Shown here: piece by piece, positions 36,101-45,100 of the stretch
Numbering within the stretch: position 1 is the first letter of the stretch
How the letters are laid out: every line of letters starts with the position of its first letter
From: Escherichia coli
GTDB lineage: Bacteria > Pseudomonadota > Gammaproteobacteria > Enterobacterales > Enterobacteriaceae
Assembly (NCBI RefSeq): GCF_003334305.1
Contig: NZ_QOWS01000025.1
DNA: 64,000 nucleotides
Strand: one strand, 5' to 3'
Position numbers: made by a program

Positions 36101-39100
36101 ACCTGGTTAAGATCGATCCTCAGGCGTTTAAGCAGGTCTTATCAAATTTACTGAGCAATGCTCTCAAATTTACCACCGAGGGGGCAGTAAAAATTACGAC
36201 CTCCCTGGTTCACATTGATGACAACCACGCTGTTATCAAAATGACGATTATGGATTCTGGAAGTGGATTATCGCAGGAAGAACAACAACAACTCTTTAAA
36301 CGCTACAGCCAAACAAGTGCAGGTCGCCAGCAAACAGGATCTGGCTTAGGCTTAATGATCTGCAAAGAATTAATTAAAAATATGCAGGGCGATTTGTCAT
36401 TAGAAAGTCATCCAGGCATAGGAACAACATTTACGATCACAATCCCGGTAGAAATTAGCCAGCAAGTGGCGACTGTCGAGGCAAAAGCAGAACACCCCAT
36501 CACACTACCTGAAAAGTTGAGCATATTAATCGCGGATGATCATCCGACCAACAGGCTATTACTCAAACGCCAGCTAAATCTATTAGGATATGATGTTGAT
36601 GAAGCCACTGATGGTGTGCAAGCGCTACACAAAGTCAGTATGCAACATTATGATCTGCTTATTACTGACGTTAATATGCCGAATATGGATGGTTTTGAGT
36701 TGACTCGCAAACTCCGTGAGCAAAATTCTTCCTTACCCATCTGGGGGCTTACAGCCAACGCACAGGCTAACGAACGTGAAAAAGGGTTAAGTTGCGGCAT
36801 GAACTTATGTTTGTTCAAACCGTTGACCCTGGATGTACTGAAAACACATTTAAGTCAGTTACACCAGGTTGCGCATATTGCACCTCAGTATCGCCACCTT
36901 GATATCGAAGCCCTGAAAAATAATACGGCGAACGATCTACAACTGATGCAGGAGATTCTCATGACTTTCCAGCATGAAACGCATAAAGATCTACCCGCTG
37001 CGTTTCAAGCACTAGAAGCTGGCGATAACAGAACTTTCCATCAGTGTATTCATCGCATCCACGGTGCGGCTAACATCCTGAATTTGCAAAAGTTGATTAA
37101 TATTAGCCATCAGTTAGAAATAACACCTGTTTCAGATGACAGTAAGCCTGAAATTCTTCAGTTGCTGAACTCTGTAAAAGAACACATTGCAGAGCTGGAC
37201 CAGGAGATTGCTGTTTTCTGTCAGAAAAATGACTAAATAGCGGCTCCCACAATGTTCAAATGTGGGAGCTATTTACCAGCACATCTTACATTTATGATGA
37301 GAACTCCTGGCGAATTTGTTCCCCATGCTGGTCGAGCGTTGCCGCTCCCGGCATAACATGCGGGTCCGCGCAGCCGCTGATTTTTATCGGATTACCCGGC
37401 ATCATTATTCCCCCGGCTTCAATCAACATATTTCTCGCCTGAGTTTGTGGCAATTTAATGGCCTCAGCCACACTTAATAACGGCGCGACGGGTACACCAA
37501 CTTCATGTATTCTGGCTAACCAAACTTCAGCTGCCTGCGTTTTTAACGTCCGCTCAATATATTGTTTAAGAATAGCCTGGTTTTGTACGCGTAAAATATT
37601 GCTGCTAAATCGGGGATCATTAACCAGTTCCGTAAGCTCCAGTGCCTGGCATAACGCAGAAAAAAGCTTGTCATTACCACAACAAATCGTAATCGGCTTA
37701 TCCTGAGTATTGAAAACATCAAAAGGTGCCATGTAGGGATGGCGATTTCCCAGACGTTGTGGTGACTTCCCTGTCGCGATATATGCCATCAGACCATGCT
37801 CCAGAAAACTCAGCGTGGCATCAAACATCGCTATATCGACATGCGCCCCTCTCTGGCTCTTTTCGCGGCCATAAAGTGCACTCACTATTCCGCTGAATAA
37901 ATAGACACCGCCGCATAGATCCGCAAGAGATGTACCAACGCGCACTGGCGGAGCATCAGGATATCCTGTTTCCATCATTATCCCGCTCATTGCCTGAATG
38001 ATGGTATCGTAGGCAGGAGCATCTTTTAGCGGACCGGTATGTCCGAAACCTGACGATGAAGCATATATGAGGCGCGGGTTGATTTCTTGAAGCATTTCCC
38101 ATGAAAACCCCAGTTTTTCCATTGTACCTGGGCGAAAATTCTCAGCTAATACATCAGCTTGTTTGAGCATATTTATAAATATACTTTTATCGTGATCATT
38201 CTTTAAATCAAGAACCACACTCTCTTTGCCATGATTAATAAAACTGTAATAGAGTGACTGTCCATCCACATAGGGACCAAATGTGCGGGTATCATCACCA
38301 TGACCTGGTGGCTCAACTTTAATTACCCTTGCGCCCATATTACAAAGAAGTTGAGTTCCGAAAGGTCCATTAAGGACATGTGTCATATCGATAACTAATA
38401 AGCCTTCAAACGGCCCTTTGCTTTCATTATTTGTCATTTGCTTATGCCTTGAAAAAAGCCGAAGGTGAAAAGACACTTCGGCATTTATGTAAAATCAATA
38501 ACATGATTAATTATGAAACCAGTCGACTGACATAAATCCACAAGGGAGCCGTGACGACAAAACCCAGTACGCTCACAGCCAATGACGCTGTACCAGTGCG
38601 GGTGTAGACATTAAACCGGCTGGCAATAATGATTCCGGAGAATGCCGGCGGTAATGCGCCTGCCAGTACCATCATCTGCAAATGTTCGCTGTTCAAATGA
38701 CATGCCATACCAACGAGAAGCAGCGCCAGTGGCATCAGAATCAGCTTCAGGAAGGTGTTATAAGCAATTTCGGCACTGAACTCGAATTTATGTGCAGCCA
38801 GAGTCAACCCCGCAGCGAATACCGCTACCCCTGAGTTAGCCTTCGCAATCAGATTAAAGGTTGGGTCCCATGCTGCCGGAATTTTTACCCCAACCAACAC
38901 CAGGATCGTTGCCAGAACAGGTGCCCATACAACTGGCTCCTTTGCCGCAGAAATTAATGCGCTCAGATTACTATTCTTCTTACCATCCGCTCCTGAGGAA
39001 GGATTCAGCAAATACAGACCAATAGGAATAGTAATTGCGTTAACAATAATAGAAATAATTGCTACCACTAAACCTGTTGATACGGAATCACCATAAATAG

Positions 39101-42100: not shown

Positions 42101-45100
42101 GTTTTCATAGGCTTTTACATTCACATAAGGCGAACACTCATCAAACCCTTTGATCGAACCAAAAATCAGACGTGGATTGATTTCTTGAATATGCTCCCAG
42201 GTGAAGCCCATGTGATCAATGGCCCCTGGATGAAAGTTCTCGACTAAGATATCAGCTTCGCGGATCAGCTTTTCCATTACCTCTTTGCCTTCCGCTGTTT
42301 TGGTATTTAACTCAATAGAACGTTTGTTACTGTTAAGCATGGTGAAGTAAAGCGCATCGATATCAGGAATATCTCGCAGCTGGTGACGCGTTACGTCACC
42401 AACGCCGGGACGTTCAATTTTAATAACGTCAGCGCCAAACCAGGCCAGCATTTGAGTACAAGATGGGCCAGATTGCACACCGGTGAAATCGAGAACTTTA
42501 ATTCCTTGAAGTGGAGTTGACATAGCAATACCTATTAGTTAATTAAATATGTGTTAATTTAGCGTTTATTTAAGGCGTAATATCTTCTATAAATAACCCG
42601 CAAAATATCGTCGTAGCTGCACTCGATATTTTTAAAATCCTGTATCAAGTGCTGAAAATCATTTCATCGCCACTTCCAATTCCTTTCTGCATGGTAAGTA
42701 GTGAGGACGAAAAGAAGAATATGATAAATATTGATTCGTGGTAATCAGAGAGAGTCGCGACATTTGTGATGTTATTCTTACAACTGTAAGAAGCGCCGGT
42801 GATTTACAAGTAAGGGTATGATTACGCTTTTTAAAGCGTACCATAAAACATAACATAATAAATGATTTGTGATGACACGGGATTATTGGGATTTACTTTG
42901 AGGAAGATAAAATGCGTGTTTATAGAACCGCGAGCGCCAAATAATTTTATGACCACAACCTGTCGTATTGTGGTCATAAAAAATTGTCGGCTGGAGGGAG
43001 TTAAATCCTTTACCTCAATATACTGCCTGTCAGCATTAGTTCACAAACAGTGCTTCGCTGTCGACGATGATTCCATCTTCCGCACCTTTAAGCGCCAGGT
43101 TTGCCTCGTAGTATTGCTTTTTATCAAGCAGTTTCTGCGCATCAGCAAGTGCATTACGAGTCTGTTTAAGCGGCATCAGATATTGGTTTTCCATTACGCC
43201 AACACCGGCCAGGCGAAGTTCTTCCATTGCGCCCTTTTTATCCCCTTTCGCCATTTTTTCATTGGCAATTTTTATCGCGGCTTCTTTTTCGGGAGTTGCT
43301 ACATAGCTCTCAGAAATTCCGACAGATGCATTAATGACAATATATTGGTCATCATTGAGATTGGTCTTTTTACCTGGCTTAGCGAACTTTGCCCATTCGG
43401 TACTGTCATCTGACAGCAAAGCGGAAGCTTCATTGGTCAGTTCTTTTGCCTTTTCTGGATCGCCATGAAACAGAGCCAGGCGCGCTACCTGCACGTCACG
43501 CATCGCATATAAACCTTGTTCAGAGATACGCTCTGCTGCTGCCGTTTTCTGGGTTTGCTGAACTTGCTGAGTTTGCTGTTGTGCCGCTACCGGTGCATTA
43601 TCAGCAGCCCATACAGTTGAAGATGCCAGAATTGCTGTGACCATCGTGGCCATAATTAAACGTTTCATACTTACCTCATTCTTTAACAGTTTTAGAAAAC
43701 GCCGCCATCATATTGGGTGAGCATGAAATGAGAAATCAGAGAGCAACGGTCATTTTGAAAGGGTTATCTTACAGTTGTAGTTATTATCGCAAGAAGTATT
43801 TTAGTCTTACAATTGTAGGAATATGCTTCCTGTCACAGAGAACTATTCTTATGTACCACAAAGAGATGTCATTTATTATATCGATGTAAATATTGATTAA
43901 TTATATGTAAATACAGCCATAACATCGTAGGTCCTCAGTGAACCATTTTCAGGATAACTTTCTATGAAAGTAAACTTAATACTTTTTAGCTTATTTTTAT
44001 TGGTCTCTATTATGGCATGCAATGTTTTTGCATTTTCCATTTCTGGTGGTGGAAGTGAGAGGAGCTATAAAGAGACGGAAAAAACATCAGCGATGACGAT
44101 AACTCACTCTACAAAACTTCAGCCATCACAGGCAATTTTGTTTAAGATGAGAGAAGATGCGCCACCATTAAACCTCACAGAAGAAACCACGCCCCCTTTT
44201 CCGACAAAGGCGAATTATCTTATTCATCCTGTGCGATAGCGTCTGTCACCTGGCAGGTGAACAATCATGTCTGATGCTGATGTGAACACCTGCCCAAATG
44301 AGCCATCCTGACCCACTACCGCCTGCCATACCCCACCATAAAGCGAATCATCAAGCCACAAGCCGGGGCAAGAAACATAAATATCCCCGTCACCAGTTCA
44401 TTACCGCCTGTTAACCACATGGTGAAGTAATAAATGAGTGCAGCGAGGATCACCATGCCGAAGAAAGAAGAGACCGCCGATACCACGTTCAGTACCTGAC
44501 CGATGTATCCGCTTACGCAGACAATACACAGGGCGAGAAACATCCATAAATAAATCATAGCTCAACCTCCTGCCGCGCTAAAAAACCTGTAACTTCAGTC
44601 ACTTTAATAGTAAGACAATCCTTAACCTCTGGCAATTTTTGCTAAGCATCAATGAAAACAGCATGTTAAATGCAACGCTATTGCGTGCGGAAAATTTTTT
44701 ACTTTGCACGATTAATAATCAGTAGCTGAAAGCAGTCAGCCAGTGATAAAGTAGAGCCACCGCATTCATGCTCCTCGTGGTTATGTCCTGACTAGTCTTT
44801 ACACTCTTTACAGGAACCATTGTCGTACATGATGGCCCAACCAATTGAGTGTACCGCTGTCGACATGGAATCTTCTGCGATACAACAATTCGTATCTACA
44901 GAAGGTAACTATGTTTCCACAATGCAAATTTTCCCGCGAGTTTCTACATCCTCGCTACTGGCTCACATGGTTTGGGCTTGGTGTACTCTGGCTTTGGGTA
45001 CAGCTTCCTTATCCTGTTCTCTGCTTTCTCGGCACGCGTATTGGCGCAATGGCGCGACCATTCCTGAAACGTCGTGAATCTATCGCCCGTAAAAACCTGG

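Follow-up and report, generated by a model that had tools for sequence, protein, structure and literature searches.

The frc-oxc-yfdV-yfdE block of Escherichia coli lies in the EvgA-activated yfdXWUVE locus, and its gene linkage across species points to oxalate as the probable substrate of the carrier YfdV

The window analysed here is a stretch of 64,000 nucleotides of the Escherichia coli contig NZ_QOWS01000025.1, and all coordinates for this strain refer to it. An earlier note had described four oxalate-handling genes, frc, oxc, yfdV and yfdE, at 37292-42523 of this window as an established acid-tolerance module encoded head to tail on the minus strand. The listing of open reading frames (ORFs) agrees with this description in gene order and strand, and four co-directional ORFs fill the interval exactly from end to end. 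Neighbouring genes are separated by 53 bp (frc-oxc), 69 bp (oxc-yfdV) and 73 bp (yfdV-yfdE). yfdX is located upstream of frc, with a 512-bp spacer between them, and evgS, which follows evgA, is convergent with yfdE across a gap of 55 bp. The interval is therefore correct for the four genes, but the published unit also includes yfdX and two EvgA boxes, so that the functional locus extends to 43821 and is approximately 1.3 kb longer. The features are summarized in Table 1. We consider it probable that, taken together, the block represents the frc-oxc-yfdV-yfdE part of the yfdXWUVE locus activated by EvgS/EvgA, that expression of yfdE is attenuated, and that YfdV imports oxalate.

The gene identities proposed earlier are supported by profile scores, by three crystal structures of E. 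coli proteins and by RefSeq annotation. Frc matches the NCBIfam equivalog models at 785-798 bits against cut-offs of 504 and 442 (TIGR03253: 785 against 504), and its residues 1-416 match the YfdW structures 1pt5 and 1pqy with an E-value of 3e-291. Oxc matches the corresponding models at 1047-1069 bits against cut-offs of 739 and 557 (TIGR03254: 1047 against 739) and the structure 2q27 over its full length at 1260 bits; the next-best family, acetolactate synthase, gives 306 bits, which is under the cut-off of that family. YfdV scores 714 bits with NF007384 ('transporter YfdV', cut-off 404), YfdX 375 bits with NF007645 (cut-off 256), and YfdE 883 bits with NF008511 (cut-off 522), the last with a match to the structure 4hl6 at an E-value of 6e-262. 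The longest ORF of yfdE, 37292-38476, begins with a GTG codon at 38476. This start is rejected, because the profile aligns with residues 14-394 of the long ORF, RefSeq has the gene begin with the ATG at 38437, and the extension falls within a hairpin. Therefore, the true yfdE product consists of 381 amino acid residues.

Many E. coli chromosomes, in which RefSeq annotates yfdE, yfdV, oxc, frc and yfdX, match the region 37000-43800 with 100% identity, and the block is matched in 5421 of 5426 complete E. coli genomes. Of 5487 matching places for this region, 21 are on records labelled as plasmids, which may represent partial matches or mis-assigned replicons. A larger region, 31269-47266, is 99.4% identical to MG1655. 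When compared with the yfdXWUVE locus of E. coli K-12, the locus has the same genes, order, strand, neighbours (evgAS, emrKY, ypdI and lpxP) and EvgA boxes. The yfdX product has 210 residues instead of 211, and the window shows ordinary strain-level polymorphism; nothing substantive differs. Thus, the locus is the known yfdXWUVE operon and belongs to textbook acid-stress biology, with nothing new in the locus itself, as the earlier note had held. An Rfam scan of the whole window gives tRNA-Arg at 22590-22661 as its sole match, and none in or near the block.

Table 1. Features of the yfdXWUVE locus and its surroundings in the window
Feature	Position	Strand	Basis
evgA	33024-33638	+	RefSeq annotation mapped onto the window
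evgS	33643-37236	+	RefSeq annotation mapped onto the window
yfdE, acetyl-CoA:oxalate CoA-transferase, 381 amino acids	37292-38437	-	NF008511, RefSeq, PDB 4hl6
yfdV, 10-helix AEC/PIN-fold secondary carrier, 314 amino acids	38511-39455	-	NF007384; PF03547 in homologues
oxc (yfdU), thiamine-diphosphate-dependent oxalyl-CoA decarboxylase, 564 amino acids	39525-41219	-	TIGR03254, PDB 2q27
frc (yfdW), formyl-CoA:oxalate CoA-transferase, 416 amino acids	41273-42523	-	TIGR03253, PDB 1pt5/1pqy
yfdX, first gene of the published yfdXWUVE unit, periplasmic protein	43036-43668	-	NF007645, RefSeq
EvgA-type box with two mismatches, emrK/evgA intergenic region	32782-32799		pattern search
18-bp EvgA-type inverted repeat without mismatches, TTCTTACAGTTGTAAGAA, located 252 bp before the start codon of frc	42775-42792		pattern search
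EvgA-type inverted repeat with one mismatch, upstream of yfdX	43804-43821		pattern search
Hairpin with 9-bp stem in the 55-bp gap between the convergent yfdE and evgS	37243-37269		folding
Intrinsic-terminator-like element between yfdV and yfdE	38452-38482	-	read from sequence, folding
Hairpin with 15-bp stem followed by a U-rich tail, 55 bp past the yfdX stop codon	42945-42981	-	terminator scan, folding

The consensus of EvgA, the 18-bp inverted repeat TTCYTACA-NN-TGTARGAA, has three matches in the window, as compared with 0.04 expected. The predicted sites are perfect before frc and have one mismatch before yfdX, and these two agree with the two inverted repeats bound by EvgA for the induction of yfdX and yfdWUVE, according to a passage of PMC3720670 that cites Masuda & Church (2003). 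The repeat on the yfdX side overlaps a −35-like hexamer, TTGTAA, that is paired with an extended −10 sequence, TG-GATAAT, and the yfdX promoter serves as a direct EvgA reporter in PMC5706723. The hairpin past the yfdX stop codon has a folding energy of −25.4 kcal/mol and a z-score of −5.8, and none of 200 shuffled sequences folds as well. This hairpin resembles a terminator and, judged from its sequence, would set frc apart from yfdX. Downstream of it, frc possesses a perfect EvgA box of its own. A scan for sigma-70 promoters in the window performs no better than chance (15 found, 15.6 expected). evgA and evgS encode the acid-sensing two-component system that activates the module. Acid induces yfdX, frc, yfdV and oxc together, and they rank among the most induced genes (PMC10746267).

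The element between yfdV and yfdE consists of the hairpin GCCGAAGUG-UCUUUU-CACCUUCGGC (38458-38482) and a following run of six U residues (38452-38457), and ends 14 nt before the ATG of yfdE. The terminator scanner, which accepts loops of up to 8 nt, overlooked this hairpin; it was found by reading the sequence and confirmed by folding (z-score −2.8; 0 of 200 shuffled sequences folded as well). In 5194 of 5406 E. coli records, the sequence of this junction is conserved at 99% identity or more. Hairpins unrelated in sequence are present at the equivalent junction in Klebsiella sp. BIGb0407 and Orbus hercynius, and the one in Orbus has a U-rich tail. In arrays of a constitutive evgS mutant, the log2 induction is 8.37 for frc, 6.97 for yfdX, 6.59 for oxc, 6.16 for yfdV and 3.57 for yfdE (PMC4283999 supplement); it falls slightly along the operon and then drops approximately 6-fold precisely at the yfdV/yfdE junction. 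yfdE is probably co-transcribed at a reduced level, because the hairpin and the six U residues are accompanied by a matching drop in induction. The supplements of a ribosome-profiling paper have no entries for these genes. The hairpin in the gap between yfdE and evgS is stable on both strands (−17 to −19 kcal/mol, z-scores −2.5 and −3.6), and from its sequence is probably a bidirectional terminator for both genes.

The same junction raises the alternative that the four genes do not form one transcription unit, with yfdE being expressed separately or largely insulated by the hairpin. The position of the hairpin and U run just 5′ of the yfdE start codon and the 6-fold lower induction of yfdE than of yfdV would be expected from such an arrangement, and yfdE is not in the list of the top acid-induced genes that holds yfdX, frc, yfdV and oxc (PMC10746267). 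However, yfdE is nonetheless induced approximately 12-fold along with the other genes, the promoter scan finds no promoter-like site in the 73-bp gap, and in several Bacteroides loci yfdE starts only 18-34 bp after yfdV. We regard separate expression or insulation of yfdE as unlikely. The four genes are co-directional, closely spaced and co-induced, as expected for a single operon, yet a terminator-like element and a drop in induction precede yfdE. These results suggest that the four genes share their regulation and, for the most part, their transcript, and that read-through into yfdE is attenuated.

The reactions of the enzymes encoded by the block are published (PMC3720670). Frc moves coenzyme A (CoA) from formyl-CoA to oxalate, Oxc converts oxalyl-CoA to formyl-CoA and CO2 with consumption of one proton, and YfdE, whose enzymatic activity has been reported, makes the first oxalyl-CoA from acetyl-CoA and thereby primes the cycle. 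Both frc and oxc are needed for the acid tolerance that oxalate induces (PMC3720670).

YfdV is a member of the auxin efflux carrier (AEC)/PIN-like carriers (TC 2.A.69, PF03547), and all listed homologues carry PF03547. Its score with the 'auxin efflux carrier' model TIGR00946 is 116, below the cut-off of 246, and therefore YfdV belongs to the AEC family but lies outside that subfamily. A profile built from 13 YfdV homologues matches Arabidopsis PIN8 with an E-value of 3e-13 and the transporter domain of human LYCHOS/GPR155 with an E-value of 5e-10. The AlphaFold2 model of YfdV, which is of moderate confidence (pLDDT, the predicted local distance difference test score, 74.7), superposes on PIN8 with a template-modelling (TM) score of 0.78-0.80. 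In this model, YfdV is predicted to have a 10-helix inverted repeat with two broken crossover helices, the breaks being at residues 105-109 and 267-271. The crossover prolines P107 and P269/P270 are at least 97% conserved among 80 homologues, and K38, N37, E96, T108, N139, N207 and S273 are shared by all 80. YfdV has matches to AEC models and PIN/LYCHOS structures only, and not to the antiporters of the OxlT type in the major facilitator superfamily (MFS); it may work like OxlT, outside that family.

The gene neighbourhoods of YfdV homologues were surveyed by scanning one genome per species (GTDB) with a YfdV profile. The best 80 of at least 580 matches, which are 49-99% identical to YfdV, were kept; 76 of these 80 loci have enough upstream sequence to be assessed, and neighbours were found by tblastn with the proteins of the window. 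The loci come from Enterobacterales, Bacteroidota, Actinomycetota (Adlercreutzia, Enterorhabdus and Bifidobacterium), Alphaproteobacteria (Xanthobacter and Ancylobacter), Fusobacteriota (Cetobacterium) and Sutterellaceae. oxc is directly upstream of, and co-directional with, the YfdV homologue in 59 of the 76 loci; the gap has a median of 91 bp, and oxc is usually preceded by frc. The Bacteroidota loci that were examined have the order frc-oxc-yfdV, with the YfdV homologue directly after oxc. Thirteen of the other 17 loci have a bicupin oxalate decarboxylase (OxdC) at the equivalent position, so that either Oxc or OxdC is encoded directly upstream of the YfdV homologue in 72 of the 76 loci, in several phyla. 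Oxc and OxdC are unrelated, and have in common only the substrate, oxalate, and the products, formate and CO2.

The two-gene cassettes of OxdC and carrier (locus L013, positions 6727-8939, and loci L011, L014, L015, L019, L038, L045-L047, L049, L055, L059 and L064) occur in Enterobacteriaceae, Xanthobacteraceae, Flavobacterium, Sphingobacterium and Ignatzschineria. Four of the OxdC proteins were scanned with TIGR03404 and reach 503-518 bits (cut-off 254), and the remaining nine were recognised by tblastn at 69-97% identity to the Klebsiella protein. In the four scanned proteins the profile match starts at residue 10-15, which leaves no room for a signal peptide, and therefore oxalate must get into the cell. 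The Klebsiella sp. (L013) and Cedecea (L014) loci have only an AraC-type regulator and an unidentified 135-residue ORF upstream of the decarboxylase-carrier pair, and no homologue of Frc, Oxc or YfdE is found in the other OxdC loci. Klebsiella sp. BIGb0407 has both the Oxc-linked and the OxdC-linked locus type. In a neighbour-joining tree, 12 OxdC-linked carriers from three phyla form one clade, and the carrier of Ignatzschineria stands apart from them, inside the enterobacterial Oxc-linked clade. Thus, linkage to OxdC has two or more origins in the carrier tree.

The survey also gave several minor observations. Providencia and Moellerella loci (L005, L007-L010 and L012) have a second frc paralogue, 74-81% identical to Frc, after yfdV; yfdE follows this paralogue in L005 and L010, and none is found within the fetched sequence of L007, L008, L009 and L012. 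One locus, L060, from a metagenome-assembled genome (MAG) labelled Oxalobacter formigenes, has a Bacteroidales-type frc-oxc-yfdV arrangement at coordinates nearly equal to those of L061. In the tree, its carrier is placed among Bacteroides sequences, and the contig may be mis-binned and not be Oxalobacter DNA. At L032 (5138-6709), one of the four YfdV homologues without an oxalate enzyme nearby is located, as a single case, near a gene for a ClcA-type H+/Cl- exchanger, which is another protein with a link to acid resistance.

The substrate of YfdV, described in the earlier note as not evident from sequence, is indeed not evident from its own sequence. However, the gene neighbourhoods elsewhere constrain it strongly to oxalate or formate. 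Judged from this linkage, YfdV most likely carries oxalate. An importer is needed, because oxalate is charged and both linked enzymes are cytoplasmic. Characterised bacterial members of the AEC family carry small dicarboxylates, MdcF malonate and MleP malate; both are described as importers, and MleP as a potential-driven uniporter (bioRxiv 10.1101/2024.06.26.600818). YfdV is the candidate for the entry route of oxalate, because an importer is needed, formate has other exits, and MdcF and MleP import small dicarboxylates. In the mechanism that we propose, most transcripts would originate at a frc promoter that depends on EvgA, or by read-through from yfdX, run across frc, oxc and yfdV, and be partly stopped before yfdE. 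YfdV would be a PIN-fold carrier of the elevator type that takes oxalate into the cytoplasm, either by uniport of the monoanion, as its relative MleP does with malate, or in exchange for formate. Intracellular decarboxylation would then remove protons during acid stress.

YfdV could instead be an exporter of the product, formate or formate with a proton, with oxalate entering by YhjX, by diffusion of oxalic acid or its monoanion at low pH, or by porin-linked carriers. Because Oxc acting with Frc yields formate, as does OxdC, the linkage fits formate export equally well. In addition, plant PIN proteins export organic anions, and YfdV is not needed for oxalate-induced acid tolerance (PMC3720670). 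However, formate can leave the cell as formic acid or through the FocA-type channels that E. coli already has, and the characterised relatives MdcF and MleP are described as importers. Moreover, if YfdV were of an exporter type, the OxdC-carrier cassettes of Klebsiella sp. and Cedecea would still have no route for the charged substrate. Export of formate as the role of YfdV is quite unlikely on this evidence. Another conceivable reading is that yfdV simply accompanies oxc and that YfdV transports something unrelated, such as a different organic anion or an auxin-like compound. The score below the cut-off of the 'auxin efflux carrier' subfamily model and the four homologue loci with housekeeping neighbours are compatible with such a role. 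However, the carrier gene is directly downstream of, and co-directional with, a gene for an oxalate-decarboxylating enzyme in the great majority of the loci (72 of 76). Linkage to two non-homologous enzymes of this kind in several phyla, with the OxdC link established independently at least two times, is hard to explain as hitch-hiking, and an unrelated substrate is highly improbable.

Several points weigh against oxalate import by YfdV and against parts of the transcriptional scheme. Gene linkage as such would fit oxalate import and formate export alike, and likewise monoanion uniport and exchange for formate. In E. coli, YfdV is not essential and only of secondary importance for oxalate-induced acid tolerance (PMC3720670), and therefore cannot be the sole entry of oxalate under those conditions. 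A role as the oxalate:formate antiporter of E. coli has been proposed for the OxlT homologue YhjX (PMC3720670), and listings based on TCDB still call YfdV (TC 2.A.69.3.5) uncharacterised, as in a survey of 2024 (PMC10971958). No oxalate gene is close to the carrier gene in the four loci with housekeeping neighbours. Because the survey kept the 80 best-scoring of at least 580 matches, the association holds for the YfdV subfamily only, and many of these 80 loci are from related MAGs of Bacteroidaceae. As regards transcription, the promoter hexamers of frc are not located, since neither the scan nor inspection by eye gives a convincing −35/−10 pair downstream of the frc EvgA box. Only its shape and the array ratios suggest that the yfdV/yfdE hairpin acts as a terminator.

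Other genes of the window touch on the handling of formate and oxalate. yfdC, an uncharacterised member of the formate/nitrite transporter family, is encoded on the plus strand at about 21583-22515, approximately 15 kb from the module and beside tRNA-Arg, and could matter for formate exit. ypdA-ypdB-ypdC are encoded on the plus strand at about 47938-51254, approximately 5 kb beyond the locus. YpdA/YpdB control yhjX, an OxlT-like MFS gene. The closeness of the ypd genes to the locus may be a coincidence.

The Frc/Oxc/OxlT system of Oxalobacter formigenes uses the same two enzymes and the same logic of oxalate entry, proton-consuming decarboxylation and formate exit. It differs from the E. coli system in that its carrier is the MFS antiporter OxlT, whereas that of E. 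coli is of the AEC/PIN fold. In addition, the E. coli system serves acid tolerance and not growth, and has an extra priming CoA-transferase, YfdE, and two-component control. MdcF of Klebsiella and MleP of Oenococcus share the family and fold of YfdV, and each is encoded beside the decarboxylase of its substrate; their substrates are C3 and C4 acids, whereas oxalate, a C2 acid, is the candidate substrate of YfdV from gene linkage only. The GadB/GadC and AdiA/AdiC pairs follow the same principle, in which a cytoplasmic proton-consuming decarboxylation is combined with a dedicated carrier and induced within the EvgA acid network. However, the proteins are unrelated, and in the present system the organic acid is activated as a CoA thioester and the oxalate-dependent protection is weaker.

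The idea that a permease adjoining oxc is an oxalate importer has been raised for Bifidobacterium animalis (Turroni 2010, as quoted in PMC11911983). Our literature search gave no earlier statement that ties oxalyl-CoA decarboxylase to AEC carriers. For oxalate decarboxylase and AEC carriers, it gave only irrelevant work on fungi and plants, in which the second, independent linkage to OxdC is not noted. In a survey of 2025, 125 gut species have frc and oxc; oxlT is present in 16 of them and absent in 109, including 75 of 75 Bacteroidota, and a gene between the oxalate genes in Proteobacteria is recorded merely as 'N' (PMC12551280). We lean slightly towards the view that YfdV-type AEC carriers are the general oxalate transporters of oxalate degraders that lack OxlT, serving either Frc/Oxc or OxdC. 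If so, the gut species with frc and oxc and without oxlT would own a complete module for uptake and degradation, and the list of gut oxalate degraders would grow, which bears on research into hyperoxaluria and kidney stones. Mechanistic studies would also gain a PIN-fold carrier from bacteria that is easy to express and has a simple substrate. The question of the YfdV substrate now has a specific and testable answer, as the subfamily is tied almost exclusively to two unrelated oxalate-decarboxylating enzymes.

Two other regions of the window vary among strains. RefSeq mapping places a sucrose-utilisation (csc) cluster at about 23107-28453, with genes for a LacI-type regulator, CscA, a kinase and an MFS sugar transporter. 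This cluster, a known strain-variable island that is missing in K-12, sits between tRNA-Arg and a truncated dsdX remnant adjoining dsdA. The genes for the minor subunits and the adhesin of the yfc fimbrial operon (5400-7864) form a divergent allele set, and just 879 of 5426 genomes contain 80% or more of this region in one place. Strain AMSHJX01, which is otherwise nearly identical, has different yfc alleles and an IS621 insertion there, and the window is without that IS621.

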